A program made the translations under genes and the position numbers. The notes below the pieces were generated by a model that did no database searches, had not been told where the DNA came from, and saw only the letters and a program-made list of their open reading frames with translations. A stretch of DNA of 40,028 bases, from contig JAHIVD010000019.1 of the NCBI GenBank assembly GCA_018816815.1, positions 1 to 40,028 of the forward strand. The letters run 5' to 3'. This stretch comes from Patescibacteria group bacterium (GTDB lineage: Bacteria; Patescibacteriota; Microgenomatia; Daviesbacterales; UBA10151). Shown here piece by piece: positions 5,401 through 35,100 of this stretch (the first letter of the stretch is position 1; each line of letters starts with the position of its first letter).

Positions 5401-5841
5401 TTATTGCTTGCCATCTTTTTTACTAATCCACAAAAAAACCACCATGCTATAAGCAATCAAAAACACAGCTTCCAGCAAAAGGTATTGATTGTAAAAAGGA
5501 AACCAAACATAAAGTGAAGATAAACTATTAAAAGCTTGCGAAAAATCTTTGGATAGACTTATAAATATTAACAAAAAACCATAAAACAGTGCCCATAATC
5601 CGCTTGTCTTAATTACGGGCTGATATTTTTCAATATTTTTTTGTACCTCAAATGCTAGTATGACCATAAACAGAAAACACGAGCCCAGAAACTGATTGAT
5701 TAATCTAGCATAACTTACAGCAGAATCCGGCCAGACAGTTTCTACCGAATATAATCTAATGTTAAAAAGATATAGTACAGCTTCCAAAAATAGATAGATT
5801 CCCCCACCAATAAGAAATCCTCTTAGGATATTTTTGTACAT
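5401..5841 (-). CDS. Small integral membrane protein (about 4 TM helices), function unknown
   Basis: Hydrophobic segments run through the whole 146-aa ORF. Confidence 0.45.
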   Translation of the reverse strand: MYKNILRGFLIGGGIYLFLEAVLYLFNIRLYSVETVWPDSAVSYARLINQFLGSCFLFMVILAFEVQKNIEKYQPVIKTSGLWALFYGFLLIFISLSKDFSQAFNSLSSLYVWFPFYNQYLLLEAVFLIAYSMVVFLWISKKDGKQ

Positions 5842-5902
5842 TTTATTGATTTTAGCAGATATTTGCTTCTATCTCAAAGCTTTAGATATAATCAGTATAT
5901 TT

Positions 5903-6459
5903 CCTCGCAGCTTGCTGCGGGGGGGGTAATGGACGGATAGGGTAAAATGATTCTGTGACAAAAAGTTTTCATATACTCAAGCATCACAACAAAAATCTAA
6001 TGCTCTAGCATTTGGTTTGTCCGGCTAAATACCGAAGGAAAGTATTTTCAGAACAAGTTAAGAATACCCTGAAACAGATTTGTCTTGAGATTTCAGGAAG
6101 ATATGAAGTTAAGTATGTTGAAATTGGAACAGACTAAGATCATGTACATTTTCTGATTCAGTCTATACCAACGATGAGGCCAAAAACTATTATTCAGATA
6201 ACAAAAAACATTACAGCCAGGGAGATATTTAAGATCCATCCTGAGGTAAAACAAATGCTTTGGGGTGGACAATTCTGGACTAATGGATATTACATCAATA
6301 CGGTTGGACAATCAGACAATGAAGAAGCAATACGGAACTATGTTGAAAACCAGGGAAAGGAATACAAACAAATCTACCGCGGTCAACTTGAAATGTTTGA
6401 GGGTTTACCTTAAACTTAAGGTTAATGTGTTAACTACCTCGCAGCAAGCTGCGAGGTAG
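5903..6459 (+). mobile_element. IS200/IS605-type (RAYT-like) element remnant bounded by inverted palindromic hairpins
   Basis: Left hairpin at 5903-5922 (CCTCGCAGC TT GCTGCGGGG). Right hairpin at 6434-6459 (CTACCTCGCAGC AA GCTGCGAGGTAG, a perfect 12-bp stem). The two are reverse complements of each other and flank a Y1-transposase-like frame. Confidence 0.7.
6000..6413 (+). pseudogene. tnpA: IS200-family Y1 (HUH) transposase tnpA, full length (137 codons) but with two in-frame stops
   Basis: One frame reads ML*HLVCPAKYRRKVF...EIGTD*DHVHFLIQSIP...LWGGQFWTNGYYINTVG, which contains the IS200 hallmarks (KYRR, HUH-type DHVHFL, FW..GYY..TVG). TAG at 6006-6008 replaces the conserved Tyr. TAA is at 6135-6137. 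Confidence 0.8.
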
Positions 6460-6494
6460 TTCATTAAGGTTTATTCTGGAAACTTTGACAAATT

Positions 6495-7664
6495 ATGAAA
6501 ATCGCATACTTTACGGATAATTATTACCCCCAGCTAAGCGGAATCGCTACCTCTGTTTATCAGTTTGCCCGAAGTTTGAGAAAAAAAGGGCATACGGTTT
6601 ATATCTTTGCTCCTAAAATAGAAGGTTATACGGATCGCGAAAAAAATGTTTATCGCCTGCCCTCAATTAGAATCTTTCCACATCTGCCCGAGGGAGCAAG
6701 ATTCCCCCTGCCTATCCCAAACAAGAATTTTCGCAGTATGTTGAAGTTTAATTTCGACATAGTACACGCTCATGGTAACGGTGCGTTTTCTCTTTTGGGA
6801 TTGGCTGTAGCTCGAGCCAAAAAGATACCCTATGTATTAACTTTCCATACTCAAATGGAAAGATTTGCTCATTATTTTTTAAAAGGCAAAGTTGTCAAAC
6901 CAAAGTTCATAAATGACGTCTTCCTAAAAAGACTAGGTAACATATCCGATTCAGTAATTGCTCCTTCGCAAAAAATGAAAGATCAACTAATTACTAATAA
7001 TGTCAAAAAAGACATCAAAGTCGTCCCCAATTTTGTAGATATTGATAAATTTAGTCAGCTTGAGCCTAAGAAAGGTTTTTTGCATAAACGCTGTCATATT
7101 CCAACCTCATACCCTCTGCTTCTTGCTGTGGGCAGGGTAGGTAAGGAAAAAAACTTTGCATTCTTAATAGAAACTTTTGCCAAGGTTACTCAAGTTAACA
7201 AAAACGCTCACCTTGTAATAGTTGGTCCTGACTGGGGTGAGATGAAAAGATTAAAAAATCAAGCTGCCGAACTAGACGTTAAAAGTAGGGTTCATTTGAC
7301 AGGAGGAATTGATATTGATCAAATGCCAAATGTTTATGCTGATGCAAGTATCTTTGTCTTTCCCTCAACTTCAGAAGTCCATCCATTAGTGACAATTGAA
7401 GCAGCTGTCTCCGGATTACCACTCATTGTGGCCAAAGATCCGGCGTACAAAGGGATAGTCATAAATAATAAGAATGGTTTCGTTGTTCCACTAGACCAGG
7501 ATATTTTTGCCAGAAAAATTATCTACCTTCTCGATCATCCCAAGCTATGTCAAACAATGAGCAAAAATTCAACAAGATTAATTAGAAAGAATTTGAATCC
7601 AGAATTCTTGACCAATAAACTAGTAAATTTTTACCAAGATACACTCAAAAATTATAAATCCTAA
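6495..7664 (+). CDS. Glycosyltransferase family 4 (GT-B fold, group 1)
   Basis: The N-terminus (MKIAYFTDNYYPQLSGIATSV) and C-terminal region (VFPSTSEVHPLVTIEAAVSGLPLI) are typical of GT4 enzymes. Confidence 0.85.
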   Translation: MKIAYFTDNYYPQLSGIATSVYQFARSLRKKGHTVYIFAPKIEGYTDREKNVYRLPSIRIFPHLPEGARFPLPIPNKNFRSMLKFNFDIVHAHGNGAFSLLGLAVARAKKIPYVLTFHTQMERFAHYFLKGKVVKPKFINDVFLKRLGNISDSVIAPSQKMKDQLITNNVKKDIKVVPNFVDIDKFSQLEPKKGFLHKRCHIPTSYPLLLAVGRVGKEKNFAFLIETFAKVTQVNKNAHLVIVGPDWGEMKRLKNQAAELDVKSRVHLTGGIDIDQMPNVYADASIFVFPSTSEVHPLVTIEAAVSGLPLIVAKDPAYKGIVINNKNGFVVPLDQDIFARKIIYLLDHPKLCQTMSKNSTRLIRKNLNPEFLTNKLVNFYQDTLKNYKS

Positions 7665-7751
7665 ACGGAGTTATCAGCTACTCTTTGCTCACCCAATCCT
7701 CCCGAGACCACGAAGCGAAACGAGTCAAGCTCTTCCTTCAAGATTCTAATG

Positions 7752-8519
7752 TTATGTAAACATAAGCGTTTTTATAAATGTTTTTACCGGTCTGATAAAA
7801 TACACTCCAAATACAATCGTTACATAACAAGTAGTAACTGCAAGATATAATATTTTTGACGTTTGAGTATCTATAATCGGCAATAATAAAACAACCGCAA
7901 GAGCTGATAATTGCAGTAAAATCAATTTATTCCCTGAATAAAAGCGCAAAATCGGTCTTGCACTCCACCCTCCATCTTCCATCTCAAATCTTCTTTTTGT
8001 GCAGGCAATCCCAAAAGCAAGAAGGAAAATTGCAAATAATAATAGATAAGGCGCACTGCCTTCAACCAATAAAGCTCCCATAAAAAATCTTAAGGGATGA
8101 GTGGCGGCATTAGTAATAAGTTCCAAATATGGAATTTTTTTAGCAACGAGAGTATAAAACAAATTTAAGACTAAAAAAATAGAATACATCTGCACAATCG
8201 GGGCGCTAAAAAATAACATCCCACTCAGCAACCCAAATGATATTAAAATTGCGGCAAAAATCAACGCAGAGCTTATTCTTATTTTTCCCGCCGGCAACGG
8301 TCTTGTTTTCTTCAGGGGACTTTTTTTATCTGATTCAACGTCAATAATATCATTTAAAGTATAAATCCCTCCGTATAATAAAACATTAAATGATAAATAA
8401 AGAAACAATAATGTTAAAAAAAGCGACGGAGGTATTGCCGGTGCAAAAAGCAAGGCGCCGAGAATCACCATTATAAAAGTAATATGAAACCTGGGCTTGA
8501 TAAGTTTTAGATAATCCAT
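7752..8519 (-). CDS. UbiA-superfamily prenyltransferase, similar to decaprenyl-phosphate phosphoribosyltransferase (DPPR synthase)
   Basis: NDIIDVESDKKSPLKKTRPLPAG fits NDxxDxxxD followed by RP..G. The protein is polytopic. Confidence 0.75.
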   Translation of the reverse strand: MDYLKLIKPRFHITFIMVILGALLFAPAIPPSLFLTLLFLYLSFNVLLYGGIYTLNDIIDVESDKKSPLKKTRPLPAGKIRISSALIFAAILISFGLLSGMLFFSAPIVQMYSIFLVLNLFYTLVAKKIPYLELITNAATHPLRFFMGALLVEGSAPYLLLFAIFLLAFGIACTKRRFEMEDGGWSARPILRFYSGNKLILLQLSALAVVLLLPIIDTQTSKILYLAVTTCYVTIVFGVYFIRPVKTFIKTLMFT

Positions 8520-26392: not shown

Positions 26393-28735
26393 TTACAACC
26401 TGGATCTTAATACTATATCTGCTTCCACCTGAAGGGCATCTCTACCATATTTTAAGCGGGATAATTCTCTGATCGTCTGACCGATTTGAGGATTTAACAT
26501 GGCTTTCCATTTTTTCATATCTTTAGTTGTATCCAAGGAAAAAGGCACAACCGGTTCACCGTTAACAATAGTTTTAATATAGGTATGAGGGGATTCAATA
26601 TTTACCAAATCTGCCTCTGAAAAAGTAGGTGCAAATTCATGCTGCAGGTAATTGGCATCAGTTATGCCCACCCTAAACCCGATAATTGTACCAACGTTTC
26701 CAAAAACAGCGTTTTTCAAATCCTCACCTATCTGACCGATAAATTGGTTAGCCACAATTAAGTTTAATCTATATTTCCTGGCCTCAGAAAGAATATCTGC
26801 AAATGTATCGGTAGCGAAATTTTGAAACTCGTCAACATAAAGGTAAAAATCCCGCCTTTGCTCCATTGGTGTATTGGAACGTGACATGGCAGCAGCCAGC
26901 AGTTTAGGAACTAAAATTAACCCCAGGAAATTAGAGTTTTCCTCCCCTATTCTGCCTTTTGACAAATTCATAATTAATATTTTTCCTTCGTCCATAACTT
27001 TGCGCAGATCAAATGAGGATTTTGATTGACCAATAATATTCCTCATCATTTTATTAGTAACAAATCGACCGAATTTAGACACTGTATAATCTAAAACTTC
27101 TGATTTATGGAAATCTGTGGTTTGAGCAATCTGATCTGTCCAGTAACGCTTCACAACCGGATCAGTAACTCTTGGCAGGAGTTCTTTGACAAAATTGGCA
27201 TCAGTCATAATTCTGACAACCTCCACAAAAGTAGCGCCTGGCGAGCTCATTGCTGTTAACATGGCATTCCTGACACCATGTTCAAATCGCGGCCCAATAA
27301 TTCCTGTTTTATTAGGATCAAAAAGTTTGTACATAAGTCCTATTATCGAAGCTACAACAAAGTGTTTTTGTTCTTCAGCATAGGCTTCCAACATATTTAA
27401 TCCAAAAGGCCGGGTCGTGTCCGAGGGATCAAAATAAATCACATCCTCAGCTCTTTGAGGTGGAATTAACTGCAGCAACTCTTCTGCAGCATCTCCGTGA
27501 GGATCAATAAAACATAAACCTTTACCTGCCATGATATCCTGCAACATCAAGGTCTTAAGTAGTTCTGACTTTCCTGTACCAGTTCTACCGATAATATACA
27601 TATGCTTTCGCCGATCATCTTCTGAAAGGTAAACCGGCCTGTCTACGCCGCGGAAAACAGATCTACCTAAAAATAAGCCACTGCTGGGAATCTTTTCCGG
27701 GGCCGGAGCCCGTTTTGATGAAAGCCAGCTAATGTAAGGTGTTTCAATAGACTTATTTGGAAAATGAAAAATAGAAGCCAGCTCATCAGGTGTTAGAACC
27801 GAAAGCTTAGTAAATCTGGGCATATAACGATAAATAAAATCAGTTAAAAACCCTTTTTTAGAATACACTTTAGCACTGGTGAATGAATTATACGGCCCGC
27901 TAAATTGCTCAAAGGCTGTTTTGATATTGGCCAGATGAGCTTTAGCAGCTGCTTCGGAAGTACTTGAAGTAACAATCCGTAAACTAATATCAAACCCTGG
28001 CTTAGCGATCTTACCCTCAACTGCTTCTAGTTCCTTGGCGTCAGGAGGCGGTTTGGGATTTTTTTCATCCCCTGGCTCTTTTTGTTTTTTCAGCCATTTT
28101 TTAGCTAAATCCTTCCAGGTATTATTTGAAGGCGAAAGCATAAGCTGCACTGCTACTCCCTCGTTTGTCTGCATCTTGGCAAAAGCCGAAGTTAAAGCTG
28201 AAAGAGGATCTGTGGGTAAATCGCGGAAGGTTTTTACTGGAAAATAATCCGCATTCTTTAGTTTCAACTGAACAAAAGCTACCTCCCCTGTCTCGGAAAA
28301 GATATTATATTCCGGAACCTCCTTAATTTCAGCATCAGGATACGCACCGTGAATCTGTTTTTCAATTAAATCCTGATGCTGTTTATAACAAGCCACAAAA
28401 AATCTGATCGATTCATGTAAAGCTACAATCTCAAAAGATAAATGTGGTTGCGGTTTCAAAACAGCCAGCATCCCTCCGGATTTCCGCAACGAAGCAAGAG
28501 TAGCAAAAAGCTGTTCAATTGCATCTATTTTAATTTCATTTCCTCTTGGAACTTTGATTTGCAAAAGCACTAACTGCAGCGACAACTTTTCTCTATCCCT
28601 GTACTTAATCCAATCCACTAAATATTTACGTAAAAAAAGGAAAATACCAACTAGTAACAACAGCAGCCCTAAAACTACAATTACGGCTACAGCCAAACCC
28701 ATAAAATCTATTCCGTTTGTTTGAGTAACTTCCAT
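26393..28735 (-). CDS. Membrane-anchored FtsK/HerA-TraD/VirD4-like P-loop ATPase (type IV coupling-protein-like)
   Basis: N-terminal TM helix, Walker A (GRTGTGKSELL) followed by CFIDPHGD, and Walker B (FYLYVDEFQNF). Confidence 0.7.
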   Translation of the reverse strand: MEVTQTNGIDFMGLAVAVIVVLGLLLLLVGIFLFLRKYLVDWIKYRDREKLSLQLVLLQIKVPRGNEIKIDAIEQLFATLASLRKSGGMLAVLKPQPHLSFEIVALHESIRFFVACYKQHQDLIEKQIHGAYPDAEIKEVPEYNIFSETGEVAFVQLKLKNADYFPVKTFRDLPTDPLSALTSAFAKMQTNEGVAVQLMLSPSNNTWKDLAKKWLKKQKEPGDEKNPKPPPDAKELEAVEGKIAKPGFDISLRIVTSSTSEAAAKAHLANIKTAFEQFSGPYNSFTSAKVYSKKGFLTDFIYRYMPRFTKLSVLTPDELASIFHFPNKSIETPYISWLSSKRAPAPEKIPSSGLFLGRSVFRGVDRPVYLSEDDRRKHMYIIGRTGTGKSELLKTLMLQDIMAGKGLCFIDPHGDAAEELLQLIPPQRAEDVIYFDPSDTTRPFGLNMLEAYAEEQKHFVVASIIGLMYKLFDPNKTGIIGPRFEHGVRNAMLTAMSSPGATFVEVVRIMTDANFVKELLPRVTDPVVKRYWTDQIAQTTDFHKSEVLDYTVSKFGRFVTNKMMRNIIGQSKSSFDLRKVMDEGKILIMNLSKGRIGEENSNFLGLILVPKLLAAAMSRSNTPMEQRRDFYLYVDEFQNFATDTFADILSEARKYRLNLIVANQFIGQIGEDLKNAVFGNVGTIIGFRVGITDANYLQHEFAPTFSEADLVNIESPHTYIKTIVNGEPVVPFSLDTTKDMKKWKAMLNPQIGQTIRELSRLKYGRDALQVEADIVLRSRL

Positions 28736-29150: not shown

Positions 29151-30080
29151 TCATGCCTTCTGAAGATTTTCCAAGTATTCTCCAACATCAAAAGCAGCCC
29201 TGCAGCCAACCCCTGCTGCAGTAATAGCTTGTCTGTATTTATAGTCTGAAACATCACCTGCTGCAAAGACTCCGGAAATATTTGTTCGGGTTTCATCTTT
29301 AACCACAATATAGCCTTTTTTATCTAAATCTAATTGGCCTTTTAGAAAATCTGTATTTGGTTTGTGACCGATTGCAACAAACAATCCATCTGTCTTTAAC
29401 TGTCTAATCTTATCTGTTTGAGTATTTTTTAGCTTCAAACCAGTTACTTTATCACTTCCCAACACCTCTTCTACTACTGAATTCCATATAAAATTGATAT
29501 TCTGCTTAGCTTTTACTAATTCCTGCAAGGCTGCCTGAGCCCGCAACTCATCTCTTCTGTGTATAACTGTGACCTGTTTGCACAGCTTAGATAAATAATT
29601 TGCTTCCCTCAAAGCAGTATCTCCTCCTCCAACAACTGCCACAGTCTTACCTTTAAAGAAAAAGCCGTCGCAAACACTGCAAGCTGATACTCCTTTTCCT
29701 TTAAGACTTTCCTCTGATGATAGTCCCAGCCATATTGCTGATGCTCCTGTTGCAATAATTAAACTACTGGCTTTTAGGTTTTGACTTTCAGTATTAATCT
29801 CAAGTGGTCTGACTTTTAAATCAACAGAAACCACATCTTCACTGATAAAACGAACGTTGAACCGCTCGGCTTGCTTCCGCATTTTAGCCATTAATTCAGG
29901 ACCTTGAATGCCTGTTTCAAACCCCGGATAATCATCTACATCTGTTGTCTTAGTCAGCTGTCCTCCTGCTTCCCTACCAGCTACAACTAAAGGATCCAAA
30001 CTGCCCCGGGCCGCATAAATAGCAGCTGTTAACCCTGCTGGTCCGGAACCAATAATTACTAGTTTTTCAATCTTATCCAT
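29151..30080 (-). CDS. trxB: Thioredoxin-disulfide reductase
   Basis: FAD motif (GSGPAG), redox-active CSVCDG, NADPH motif (GGGDTALREA) and a C-terminal GD motif. Confidence 0.95.
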   Translation of the reverse strand: MDKIEKLVIIGSGPAGLTAAIYAARGSLDPLVVAGREAGGQLTKTTDVDDYPGFETGIQGPELMAKMRKQAERFNVRFISEDVVSVDLKVRPLEINTESQNLKASSLIIATGASAIWLGLSSEESLKGKGVSACSVCDGFFFKGKTVAVVGGGDTALREANYLSKLCKQVTVIHRRDELRAQAALQELVKAKQNINFIWNSVVEEVLGSDKVTGLKLKNTQTDKIRQLKTDGLFVAIGHKPNTDFLKGQLDLDKKGYIVVKDETRTNISGVFAAGDVSDYKYRQAITAAGVGCRAAFDVGEYLENLQKA

Positions 30081-31655: not shown

Positions 31656-32588
31656 ATTTTTACAGTTATGTTACACTTTTTAATCATAGAACACAAAAAT
31701 TATGAAATCTTCAGAAAAACCAATTATTCTTCATTCAGATTATTAAGAACTATTAAGAGATTGCGGGCAATTAGTTGCTCGTCTCAGGCAATCTAAAACT
31801 TTAACAACTTTATTGGATATTTTGGGAAGAAAAAGGATAAAACTTATCTGTACAAGAAAAAAGATTGTTACTCCTTTCTTTTCAGTAAGACAACCTTACA
31901 AAAACCGGTTTTAAAAAAGATTTGGCTACAAACAAACTAACCAGAATTTTATTGGATGAAAACACTACCTTTGGGGATATTTTAAAAAAAATTGCCCGAG
32001 AGTTATTTTCTGCCAGCAATGAAAGAAACGGAAACAACAGATACAGCCAGGTAGCAGCAGAGCATCTCCCTCATTTTTAGAAGGTCAAAATACTTTAGGC
32101 TATTACAGTGAACTTTGAACAGGCACCTTTTTAATCTTTTTAATTTTTAATCTTTTTCATTACTAATCCTGAGATGATGAAAACCATGGCTATCAAAAAT
32201 GGTCAAGGCATACCAGAATTGCTCCAGCTTTCCGATGAACAGCTTAAAAATTTCTATCGTTTTGAAAATCATGATTGGACAGCCAAGATATTAAAAAAGT
32301 AATTGCTAATACTGTCCTAAATGATTAAAAAAATTTGCATTTGGCTGATTTGAGTTCCGATGCTTTGGATTTAATGGAAAAATTTCTGGAGTAAGCCCCT
32401 AAAACAAAAACAACCCCGCAACTGTTCAATATTTGACAAAAAGAATAATGTAATACTTCTCCCTCGATTACGCTCGGGATCGTTCAGTGAATGTTCTGGA
32501 AACTCCTGAACGGGTTACACAACGCTTGAGCTATTGACTATTAAAAAGGTACATGTGTTATTATTAAAAATACTAAGGAAAATGCTTA

Positions 32589-33170
32589 ATGGTGAATAGG
32601 GATAAAAAAATTATCAAAGTTCTAAGTATTATTGGAGTGGTGTTAATATTCGGAGGACTGGGTCTATTGATATTTTTAGAAATCAAATTTTTAAATATGC
32701 CTAACAGCGAGCTTGTTGCTTTCTCGGAAACCATCCGTCTCCCCTCATCCCTGATAAGCTCCCTCTCTTCCTTAACCATGCCCTCTCAAAGTTTACCAAC
32801 TCCTGTTCCTGCTCCTACTGCAACTCCTCCGCCGACCAGCGGATCAACTGTTGTTGATCCTGTTGTTAATCCTGTTACCGCTGCTTCCGTTTCCCCTTAT
32901 CGTGGCAAATTTACCGGAGTTTTGGCAGATAATATCAAGCTGATCTTTGCCGATCCAAGTTATAAAGACATCATCAGCCTGATTGATGACAGCGTAAAAC
33001 AGACTGATCCAAACATCATCTATACAGATTATAAAAAGGCCTTTAATTTAATGAAAACCGCCTATCTGAGCAGTCAAGACACATATATGCTGATGGCTAT
33101 GATGGACATTAGGGTAACAGCTTCTACTCTGCCTCAGTTTTCAGTTGCGGATATGGAGATACCCGAATGA
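32589..33170 (+). CDS. Membrane-anchored protein with a Pro/Thr linker and a small C-terminal domain
   Basis: TM helix, then LPTPVPAPTATPPPTSG. Its stop overlaps the start of the next gene (ATGA). Confidence 0.5.
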   Translation: MVNRDKKIIKVLSIIGVVLIFGGLGLLIFLEIKFLNMPNSELVAFSETIRLPSSLISSLSSLTMPSQSLPTPVPAPTATPPPTSGSTVVDPVVNPVTAASVSPYRGKFTGVLADNIKLIFADPSYKDIISLIDDSVKQTDPNIIYTDYKKAFNLMKTAYLSSQDTYMLMAMMDIRVTASTLPQFSVADMEIPE

Positions 33171-34528
33171 AAAAAGTATGTTTTAAACTGGGAATAAGCT
33201 TATTTTGCCTAGGTTTAGTTTTGACAATTTTAGTCGGCAAATCTGCGGCTGACCAGTCTGCATTCTTAGGCTATTCGGTGGATTCCACAAAGGATAAACC
33301 AATTTCCGTATTTAACAATTTTCCAGCGGCTTATGGCCATATCCATGATAACATAGTTGAAGATAGACCAAACAGATGTGACGAAGTGTTGGTGTTAGCC
33401 AGTGACAAATGTTATGAATTTCATTATCTACTAAATGATTGCCGAACGTCGTTAGCTAACCCATCTGACAGAAATCAATGCAATCTTCAACCCCTGGTTG
33501 CTGCAACACAGACATATAACCAAAAACAATTAGAAGAATTCCTCGAGAGCCAATGTGTTGCTAATTTTAACACAGGCACTACAGCAGCTGCCAATATATT
33601 AAGTTGTGCTGGTTATGTCTATCAGCAATGTGTACAAAAATTATTTGAAAACAATACCACCATAAATCAAACTCAATATGATGACTTTCAAGAATGTCTC
33701 CGAAAATCTATAGAATCTATAGTAAAAAATGGATCAACGCTCCACGGTGCTAACCTTTCAGCAAAAAAGGTTACTAACCTGGAGCTTTATTGGGGGTCTA
33801 ACAGCTTATTTTCTGGTAATGCGAATATAGCGGAAATAAATTTGGATTTAAGTAAAATTGACACTGCTTTTAATCCTGAAGAAAGCAAAAATTATGACAT
33901 GACTCTATTTGTTTACTTTGATGGATATAACGGTCCATGTCAGGGTGATAAGTGTAAAAAAGTCAGCTTTACCATCCGCTATACCGCTCCTGCTTCAGTC
34001 CCGGCAGCAGGAACTGGCACTAAAGCTGTTCCGGCAGGAGATGCTGGTACCAATACTGCTGCTCGTTCTTGTGACTACAGGGAGTCTTGCGGTAGTGGAG
34101 GAACAAAACTTTGCCATGGTAAACTTAGTAAAGACGCTAATGGCAAGGAACAATGCATATTTATAACAGGCTCTTCGTATTGCGAAGGTTGCGAGGGCGA
34201 GTCCGGAACACCAAACAGTATTTGTCCTCCCGGAGCCTACGATATTCAGTGTACAGGAAATTGTGCTGGGTGTGATTTAAATTCAGGCGAAGCAACTGTT
34301 AAACACTGCAACTCTTCAGGAACCGCATGGGAGGATAGAAATCCTGAATGTAACGTCAAATGCGCCAAGTGTGGCGACCGTAAAGTTAGCGGACCGTCCG
34401 AAGGAAGTCGTTGCGAGTATCCGGAACAGTGCTCTACGGGCGGGGTTCATAGATGTACCGGGACTATCCAAGGAGGAGTATGTAAATATAATCCGGCAAT
34501 AGATCCTTATTGTACTGCTTGCTACTAA
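33167..34528 (+). CDS. Secreted cysteine-rich protein (30 Cys in the mature part, 20 of them in the last 152 aa)
   Basis: Signal peptide (...GKSAADQ). Repeated modules C-x5-C-x7-C-x13-C-x8-C-x2-C (aa 302-342) and C-x5-C-x7-C-x8-C-x9-C-x2-C (aa 416-452) share CxYxExCxxGG. Two C-x3-C-x2-C units lie between them. Confidence 0.7.
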   Translation: MKKVCFKLGISLFCLGLVLTILVGKSAADQSAFLGYSVDSTKDKPISVFNNFPAAYGHIHDNIVEDRPNRCDEVLVLASDKCYEFHYLLNDCRTSLANPSDRNQCNLQPLVAATQTYNQKQLEEFLESQCVANFNTGTTAAANILSCAGYVYQQCVQKLFENNTTINQTQYDDFQECLRKSIESIVKNGSTLHGANLSAKKVTNLELYWGSNSLFSGNANIAEINLDLSKIDTAFNPEESKNYDMTLFVYFDGYNGPCQGDKCKKVSFTIRYTAPASVPAAGTGTKAVPAGDAGTNTAARSCDYRESCGSGGTKLCHGKLSKDANGKEQCIFITGSSYCEGCEGESGTPNSICPPGAYDIQCTGNCAGCDLNSGEATVKHCNSSGTAWEDRNPECNVKCAKCGDRKVSGPSEGSRCEYPEQCSTGGVHRCTGTIQGGVCKYNPAIDPYCTACY

Positions 34529-34542
34529 TATAATTAAAATAT

Positions 34543-34815
34543 ATGAAAATTTTAGAACAAATTAAAAATCAAATTCAAAGCAATGAAACTGTCAGTTTGC
34601 TGGTTCGTAAAAAAAAGGCTATTTTAATTATCCTGATTTTAGTTTTAGGGATAATGGCCGGAGTTTACCTGGTCAGGCAGCAGCAAATCCTAAAAAGCAG
34701 AGCAGCAACTGGTCGTACAGTAATTCGTATAACTCCTGCTATCAACGACACAATAGTCGAAACTAACACTTCTGAGGTTCAAATCCAAATTGATAAGGGT
34801 AGTTTTGGGAACTGA
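34543..34815 (+). CDS. Small membrane-anchored protein
   Basis: TM helix followed by VRQQQILKSRAA and a roughly 45-aa extracytoplasmic tail. It lies 14 nt after the Cys-rich gene. Confidence 0.45.
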   Translation: MKILEQIKNQIQSNETVSLLVRKKKAILIILILVLGIMAGVYLVRQQQILKSRAATGRTVIRITPAINDTIVETNTSEVQIQIDKGSFGN

Positions 34816-34872: not shown

Positions 34873-35100
34873 TTAACTTGCTGCAAGTAATTTTGCCCTT
34901 GCCTGCTTAGCTTCTGCTTTCGCCTTAAGCATGGCCTCTGTTTTAGCTTTTCTTTCAGCAATACCTTTATCAACAATCTTTTGGCATTCTGAATCAGGGC
35001 AAACTGTTTTAGTATAAGTTATACTGGAAACACCCATCTTACCAACCCAGGTTTTACCATCTATCCGTTGCTTGCCACATTTAACACAAGGGTTGCTCAT
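34873..35100 (-). CDS. Small zinc-ribbon protein with a Lys/Ala-rich helical tail
   Basis: CVKC...CPDSEC gives four Cys in a CxxC...CxxxC arrangement. Confidence 0.5.
   Translation of the reverse strand: MSNPCVKCGKQRIDGKTWVGKMGVSSITYTKTVCPDSECQKIVDKGIAERKAKTEAMLKAKAEAKQARAKLLAAS

Follow-up and report, generated by a model that had tools for sequence, protein, structure and literature searches.

A conserved three-gene unit in a Daviesbacterales genome encodes a predicted exported, disulfide-rich protein built from new modules

Extracellular proteins assembled from disulfide-rich modules are already a known kind. EGF-like, TSP1 and TNFR-type repeats and the Myxococcus cysteine-rich repeat are small (about 35-55 amino acids, aa), contain an even number of cysteines, are rich in beta-hairpins and occur singly or in tandem, mixed with other extracellular domains. 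Surface proteins of monoderm bacteria with SLH, CWB or dockerin domains keep a constant C-terminal unit under unrelated N-termini (protease, Ig-like and others), and in Patescibacteria head-bearing VirB2-like pilins (PF18895) pair an anchor that is conserved with an exposed part that varies (PMC12102498). Here we analyze a locus of the same phylum and class that has features in common with all of these: an operon of three plus-strand genes, termed A, B and C, located at positions 32589-34815 of a 40,028-nt stretch (hereafter the window) of contig JAHIVD010000019.1, from a member of the Patescibacteria (Microgenomatia, Daviesbacterales). It is highly probable that the central product, B, is an exported, disulfide-rich, modular protein that belongs to a conserved three-gene unit. 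Our overall picture, which we favour somewhat over the other readings taken together, is that A, B and C would form a cell-envelope unit in which B is a disulfide-stapled binding or recognition protein held at the surface. What is new here is the set of modules found in B (Y, X, V and W), the partner families A and C, and their arrangement as a conserved three-gene unit in which the stem is constant and the head exchangeable.

The modules of B are alike in all the respects listed above to the EGF-like, TSP1 and TNFR-type repeats, and in one relative, P0016, X modules adjoin bona fide TSP_1 repeats. However, they differ from them in giving no usable sequence match at E<=10 and no structural match, and in having distinct motifs of their own (CxYxExC...GTIQGGxCKY[DN]P and CTPGxYD...GEAxVKQCNSxGTxW). 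Hevein/CBM18-type domains gave no Pfam match, and no CC doublet is found in Y or X. With the SLH, CWB and dockerin proteins B shares the constant C-terminal unit under unrelated N-termini, and some of its relatives also bear dockerins, but B itself has none of the SLH, LPXTG, CWB or dockerin elements, its constant unit being a new disulfide-rich cassette. As for the pilins, the Y module does occur as a pilin extracellular head, whereas B has a predicted cleavable signal peptide, no pilin hairpin and no PF18895 match, is encoded next to A and C and not next to pilin paralogs or VirB6, and keeps the Y-containing cassette as its conserved part, not as its variable one.

An earlier interpretation made without database searches (the sequence-only reading) had recognised no known family in B, and the searches agree with it for all the B modules. 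Pfam and NCBIfam, run at E<=10 on B and on isolated modules (Y, X, tandem-Y and Z, a module found in relatives), returned nothing usable, the sole trace of an EGF-like, TSP1 or TNFR-type repeat being TNFR_c6 (E=0.28) over 11 residues of Z. Sequence searches of the PDB with B alone and with a cassette profile gave chance matches only. The model of the cassette, obtained from an 8-row alignment with a mean predicted local distance difference test (pLDDT) score of 70 (68-86 in the Y1 region), shows three beta-hairpin modules; when it was compared with the PDB and BFVD using Foldseek, the best E values were 0.15-0.19 with template modelling scores below 0.25, and no knottin was matched, strings of tiny disulfide domains being hard targets for fold searches. 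Neither A nor C had a match in Pfam or NCBIfam scans, and the literature searched contained no description of modules Y, X, V or W or of families A and C.

The three open reading frames (ORFs) were found exactly as first proposed, packed on the plus strand with an ATGA overlap at the A/B junction and a gap of 14 nt between B and C, and the window otherwise has its long ORFs almost exclusively on the minus strand. A word-indexed search of 5.8 billion proteins identified one relative of B, P0002, with 29% identity, and phmmer, run exhaustively against 1.84 billion representatives, added 25 further proteins, nearly all of which matched only aa 290-452 of B. In all, the family comprises 26 clusters among the representatives searched. 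The locus of P0002, L001, is syntenic with the window over at least 12 kb, homologs of A (63% identity) and C (62%) included, and the A-B-C unit recurs in at least ten metagenomic loci, with A-like and/or C-like genes flanking cassette proteins in L002, L004, L005, L006, L008, L009 and L010. Synteny and conservation in multiple loci rule out a chance ORF or non-coding artefact, and on this comparative evidence genes A, B and C are real. When species-representative genomes were searched with the peptides of B itself no locus was found, and the Y2 profile identified one, L003, in Candidatus Daviesbacteria RIFCSPHIGHO2_02_FULL_43_12, the only match in a named genome. The relatives were all obtained from a small number of groundwater and related metagenome studies, which limits how far they can be taken as independent.

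A C-family gene of about 75-95 aa (hidden Markov model, HMM, E values of 1e-14 to 1e-38) is located directly downstream of the B-family gene in eight of the eight loci with downstream DNA, and also directly 3' of it in L013 and L015. Homologs of A are found 5' of B-family genes in L001, L002 (56% identity), L004, L005, L006, L009 and L013; an A-family gene lies directly upstream in seven cassette loci, frequently with a 4-nt overlap as in the window. Two loci have another gene in the upstream position, encoding an unrelated membrane-anchored or secreted protein: L008, whose B carries a metalloprotease head, and L010. A blind test was done by searching with the C-family profile and inspecting the DNA upstream of three new members. 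It led to L015, with a full Y1-X-Y2 protein (E=4e-56), to L013, where an A-family gene (E=1e-16) accompanies the gene of a different, 835-aa Cys-rich protein, and to L011/L012, where only a leader motif was in common, within an array of dockerin/cohesin-type secreted proteins.

This arrangement bears on the possibility that B is directed at other cells, as a secreted effector, toxin or bacteriocin-like protein, with A and/or C acting as immunity, export or maturation factors. A small operon that combines small membrane proteins with a Cys-rich secreted one would be in line with it, as would the reprolysin-like metalloprotease head of some family members and the change of the upstream gene together with the head in L008 and L010, which might be expected of an immunity or inhibitor partner. 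We nevertheless consider it unlikely: the polarity is opposite to that of polymorphic toxins, since it is the N-terminus that varies and the C-terminus that is constant, gene C is conserved whatever the head type, with no co-variation, the head of B matches no toxin or enzyme family, and A and C each have a single transmembrane (TM) helix and no transporter features. PADLOC and toxin libraries gave no match at all and are hence uninformative.

As for B itself, 30 cysteines had been counted after the signal peptide, 20 of them in the last 152 aa; both counts are correct, with two more cysteines within the signal peptide (the first 28 aa). Cysteine makes up 7.1% of B compared with an average of 0.77% in the 30 remaining genes of the window (binomial P ~1e-20). 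Secretion of B had also been proposed, and a predicted Sec-type signal peptide with a -3/-1 site (SAA/DQ, the slash marking the cut) agrees with it; its layout is kept in the orthologs P0002 and P0003, with sites AMA/D and VLA/D. According to jackhmmer searches, the N-region that follows is matched only in P0002 and P0003 (28% identity to P0002, with many gaps), the W module is also present in P0009, P0002 and P0003, with two copies in the latter, and the V domain is common to P0002, P0003 and P0004. A Pro/Ala/Gly linker joins the V domain to the cassette. The proposed pair of paralogous six-Cys modules with the pattern CxYxExCxxGG...CxxC (aa 302-342 and 416-452) was confirmed: the Smith-Waterman score of Y1 against Y2 was 57 versus 24+-5 for shuffled sequences, a value reached by 0 of 2000 shuffles, or by 2 of 2000 when the Cys positions were fixed, and one family HMM matches both. 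The two C-x3-C-x2-C units that had been described between them do exist, at residues 362/366/369 and 395/399/402, but not as separate units: X (aa 353-402) recurs whole in other proteins, and the two stretches are therefore halves of a single 8-Cys module.

The Y1-X-Y2 cassette (6+8+6 Cys) shows 45-53% identity across eight proteins with unrelated N-terminal regions, and Y2, the best-conserved part of B, is 50-75% identical to its counterparts in nine further proteins, the C, Y and GTIQ-G-C-Y positions being invariant. In contrast to the 19 neighbouring gene pairs of the window and L001, which are 45-87% identical (mostly 59-87%), B and P0002 are only 29-30% identical, with 31% gaps, so that the front end of B appears to evolve fast. 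Considered by modules, identity to P0002 is 25-28% in the N-region and W, 39% in V and 55-57% in X and Y2, and Y2 is 73% identical to that of P0003. The orthologs differ by insertions of whole modules (Z, a second W) or of a Pro/Ser linker, module Z being inserted N-terminal to the cassette in P0002, P0003, P0005 and P0008-P0010. Tandem arrays of four to five Y copies are present in P0006, P0007 and P0013, and three tandem copies of X in P0016. Across the family, the cassette or its modules are associated with a reprolysin-like metalloprotease (HExxH) and with Ig-like, TSP_1, Big_7, Big_13 and Dockerin_1 domains, the last four with matches above the Pfam cut-offs. Two population single-nucleotide polymorphisms in B, A97V in the N-region and V131A in the W module, are both in the head; being two sites only, they prove nothing.

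These features could also be accommodated if B were a structural component of the envelope, that is, a wall-associated or S-layer-like scaffold or a disulfide-stiffened spacer without a specific ligand, which A and C would assemble or anchor. The arrays of four to five Y copies resemble stalk or spacer repeats, the cassette is C-terminal in many differing proteins, in the manner of monoderm wall-binding domains, and the membrane partners are conserved. However, strongly conserved non-Cys residues of Y (Y, E, GTIQGG and KY[DN]P) suggest a binding surface, in pilins Y occupies the exposed end, a head with such rapid turnover would be unusual in a housekeeping scaffold, and the family is very small, given the number of clusters found. 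A structural component is the strongest of the alternatives, and still a rather doubtful one. Because Y also serves as a pilin head, occurs in tandem arrays and has a conserved surface motif, we favour a binding module over a passive spacer.

The extracellular, disulfide-dense nature attributed to the Cys modules in the sequence-only reading gained support from export signals, extracellular partner domains, Cys parity, Cys conservation and pairwise Cys loss. An N-terminal hydrophobic segment is present in all 24 full-length family members, and the Cys count past this segment is even in 19 of the 24 (P=0.003), and in 14 of the 14 closest relatives. Dutton and co-workers are said to have used even Cys parity, in 2008, to infer disulfide-forming capacity. 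Twenty-four of the 30 mature Cys of B are kept in both orthologs, compared with 78 of the 395 other residues (~80% vs ~20%). Exactly C3 and C8 are missing from the X copies of P0011, P0019 and P0026, and exactly C3 and C5 from Y1 of P0008. This pairwise loss is expected for disulfide partners, and it also breaks the C-x3-C-x2-C stretch, the putative metal site. The only Y copy with lost Cys, a single case, thus lost C3 and C5 and not the III-VI pairing of knottins, and the knot-like character suggested in the sequence-only reading is a conjecture. To judge from these patterns, B probably has up to 15 disulfide bonds. The literature searched on disulfide formation or Cys-rich proteins in Patescibacteria contained nothing relevant.

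The alternative that the Cys residues bind Zn or Fe-S, so that B would be an extracellular metal-binding or redox protein, for instance, could draw on the two C-x3-C-x2-C stretches of X, the CxxC ends of the Y modules, the very weak, non-significant likeness of module Z to Fer4_19 and TNFR_c6 (Pfam E 0.3-0.5) and the absence of Dsb and VKOR genes from the window. Yet the signal of B is of the Sec type and not of the twin-arginine (Tat) type, Cys spacings vary among copies, and the X copies without C3 and C8 indicate that C-x3-C-x2-C is no fixed unit. Besides, Cys parity is even and the partner domains are extracellular, no conserved His or Asp ligands are present, and no match to a zinc-ribbon or other metal-binding family was obtained in Pfam or NCBIfam at E<=0.1. 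We therefore regard metal binding as very improbable.

A different link is suggested by the pilins. Two proteins combine a Y module with T4SS_pilin (PF18895), Y being C-terminal in P0020 and N-terminal in L003:5890-6444. Each is encoded within a pilin array, and one of them lies next to a TrbL/VirB6-like gene. In addition, a 780-aa ATPase is encoded at 26393-28735 on the minus strand of the window, with DUF87/HerA and TrwB_AAD_bind above cut-offs and also a TraG-D_C match; on these domain matches it is a VirD4/TraG-like coupling protein. The gene is 87% identical in L001 and lies 3.8 kb upstream of the operon, with trxB, PAP2 and cytidylyltransferase genes in between. B could then be an accessory extracellular part of a type IV secretion system (T4SS), such as a tip or docking factor, and not an independent surface protein. 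The Y heads on two pilins, the presence of the ATPase gene upstream of the operon in both the window and L001 and the fact that no adhesin was found in a survey of Patescibacteria type IV secretion genes (PMC12102498) would all be compatible with this. On the other hand, B lacks the pilin hairpin, pilin, VirB4 or VirB6 genes are adjacent in none of ten A-B-C loci, the VirD4-like gene is set apart by housekeeping genes and such genes are commonly scattered in Patescibacteria genomes (PMC12102498), and a common module is no evidence of a common machine. The probability that B is a T4SS part seems to us quite low.

The pilin arrays themselves deserve a description. Positions 2983-9092 of L003 hold at least five T4SS_pilin (PF18895) paralogs with differing N- or C-terminal extracellular extensions (one Y-like head and one secreted domain of 400 aa), followed by a 577-aa TrbL/VirB6-like polytopic protein. 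L007 has about eight consecutive T4SS_pilin genes at 5458-8227, one of them (P0020) ending in Y, and two more pilin genes at 562-1883.

The two partners of B have simple layouts. In protein A, a basic N-terminus precedes a single TM helix (~aa 11-32), after which come a Pro/Thr/Ser-rich linker (~aa 50-105) and a helical ectodomain of ~90 aa in which I128, Y145, K149, A151, Y159, L181, D188 and P192 are invariant. In a groundwater population (run X3) an in-frame 12-nt insertion, ATCCTGTTGTTA, at 32856/32857 duplicates VVNP in the linker, and the presumed wall-spanning spacer of A is thus length-polymorphic. Protein C begins with ~25 conserved cytoplasmic residues, followed by one TM helix, a VRQQQILKSRA motif (QxQILKSRA at the family level) and a beta-type ectodomain of ~35 aa. 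The TM-plus-motif leader is also N-terminal in the larger X/Y-bearing proteins P0026, P0018 and P0021. In the window, this leader (34543-34710) comprises the cytoplasmic stretch, the TM helix and [LV][VR]QxQ[IQ]LKS[RQ]A, and it is also found from position 6267 in L011/L012 and from 2122 and 3568 in L011, so that small C proteins and many large secreted proteins of these bacteria have one leader type in common. It resembles a Sec signal or anchor typical of the lineage, with a putative SxA cleavage site, and no named model was found for it. The runs at 2122-10208 of L011 and 2074-10568 of L012 (GCA_039738255.1, GCA_039738335.1) encode large secreted proteins of 468-914 aa with ~3% Cys and the QQQxLKSxA-type leader throughout, some of them with dockerin-like ends and Pro/Ser tails. 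A weak cohesin-like protein adjoins, and these runs may be a cohesin-dockerin surface assembly system.

Put together, the data are consistent with the following scheme. B would be exported by Sec, with its signal peptide cut at about SAA/DQ, and outside the cell it would fold, with up to 15 disulfides, into a string of small modules. The V domain and Y1-X-Y2 would be a constant stem and the N-terminal part a variable head, which diverges fast or, from one lineage to another, is exchanged altogether for a reprolysin-like metalloprotease or for Ig-like or other Cys-helical regions. C would be the universal membrane partner, most plausibly contacted by the conserved stem of B, and A a sub-clade partner whose Pro/Thr-rich spacer is of sufficient length to span the wall; as A is missing when B has a protease head, it may serve the helical-Cys head type. 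The most likely task of A and C would be to retain or assemble B on the cell surface, where B could bind an external target, such as a glycan, a particle or the surface of a host cell, via the variable head or via the Y and X modules themselves. A specific role of B in adhesion or recognition is put forward tentatively, with somewhat less confidence than the overall picture of a surface-held binding protein in an envelope unit.

Within this scheme, the genes, the export signals, the modular make-up, the pattern of conservation, the extracellular partner domains and the disulfide signatures are shown by the data, while retention of B at the surface through contacts with A and C and its role in binding or recognition are inferred. 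Several observations weigh against the scheme. A is swapped for unrelated genes in L008 and L010, and by gene order it is not an obligatory partner. No wall anchor, LPXTG, lipobox ([LVI][ASTVI][GAS]C) or TM segment beyond the signal peptide was found in B, which ends in ...DPYCTACY, and the protein could simply be released. The low identity of the head may stem from relaxed constraint or module shuffling and not from diversifying selection. No Dsb or VKOR gene is present in the 40-kb window, where the only related gene found encodes a cytoplasmic TrxB-like reductase (29151-30080). With respect to expression, none of the metatranscriptome runs in which RNA evidence for B was sought contains B. 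A metatranscriptome contig of 354 nt, with a depth of 4.4, spans 32481-32814, from the region upstream of A into its 5' end, and lends weak support to transcription of gene A; this sole RNA contig may contain DNA, and it has a 1-nt deletion at 32599. The deletion falls in codon 4 of annotated A and could be an assembly error, a strain variant or a sign that the true start of A is further downstream.

The coordinates of the genes, of the parts of B and of a promoter-like element upstream of the operon are compiled in Table 1.

Table 1. Position of the operon genes, the segments of protein B and the upstream promoter-like element in the window.
Feature	Coordinates	Strand	Description
Promoter-like element	32534-32564	+	TTGACT 32534-32539, 19-nt spacer, extended -10 TGtTATTAT 32556-32564; read from sequence
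Gene A	32589-33170	+	193 aa, 0 Cys
Gene B	33167-34528	+	453 aa, 32 Cys
B signal peptide	33167-33250	+	aa 1-28; MKK, hydrophobic core, SAA/DQ; read from sequence
B N-region	33251-33517	+	aa 29-117, 4 Cys; lineage-specific, fast-diverging
B W module	33518-33721	+	aa 118-185, 4 Cys (C130, C147, C155, C177); predicted helical, low confidence
B V domain	33722-34000	+	aa 186-278, 2 Cys (C258, C263); directly N-terminal to cassette; predicted beta-rich
Module Y1	34070-34192	+	aa 302-342, 6 Cys; CDYRESCGSGG...CEGC
Module X	34223-34372	+	aa 353-402, 8 Cys; CPPGAYD..C-x3-C-x2-C-x11-C-x13-C-x3-C-x2-C
Module Y2	34412-34522	+	aa 416-452, 6 Cys; CEYPEQCSTGG...CTAC; core GTIQGGxCKY[ND]P
Gene C	34543-34815	+	90 aa, 0 Cys

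Nucleotide conservation with the syntenic locus L001 starts at ~32533 (78.7% over 164 nt), and a Shine-Dalgarno sequence, AAGGA, is located at 32575-32579, 9 nt 5' of the ATG of gene A. The consensus scan for promoters omitted the element shown in Table 1 because its spacer is longer than 18 nt. The RNA contig begins 5' of this element and therefore does not fix the transcription start. Five groundwater metagenome runs, belonging to three studies, contain the stretch at >=99% identity. Upstream of gene A, positions 31656-32588 form a gap of 930 bp without a long ORF, inside which there is a 42-codon ORF (32174-32302). In L001 this position is occupied by a DUF1003 gene, of which no remnant was found in the gap, and an Rfam scan of the gap gave only sub-threshold chance matches. 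On the other side, convergent with gene C, a minus-strand gene at 34873-35100 encodes a 75-aa protein with two CxxC-type pairs (CVKCGK...CPDSEC) and a Lys/Ala-rich tail, which is 62% identical in L001 and has no Pfam match. Unlike B, it looks like a small cytoplasmic zinc-ribbon protein.

How the ultra-small, host-dependent Patescibacteria recognise and attach to other cells is largely unexplained, and the survey of their type IV secretion genes mentioned above found no adhesin (PMC12102498). The locus analyzed here defines four unnamed extracellular modules (Y, X, V and W) and two unnamed partner families (A and C), and profile models of the modules could serve to annotate a block of hypothetical Microgenomatia surface proteins. 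As a speculative extension, to which we assign a low probability, the A-B-C unit might be an undescribed device of Microgenomatia for recognising a host or another target, in which the disulfide-stapled stem (V-Y1-X-Y2) docks on C, and in one sub-clade also on the wall-spanning A, and carries interchangeable heads, a metalloprotease among them. The Y module would be reused as the exposed head of T4SS-type pilins, and Y and X would be a common surface currency of these episymbionts for ligand binding or as adaptors. If this were true, the Y/X modules would supply the missing adhesin function of the Patescibacteria T4SS. The heavy use of disulfides also poses the question of how reduced genomes, many of them from anoxic groundwater, oxidise exported Cys, and the A-B-C unit is compact enough for expression and testing.

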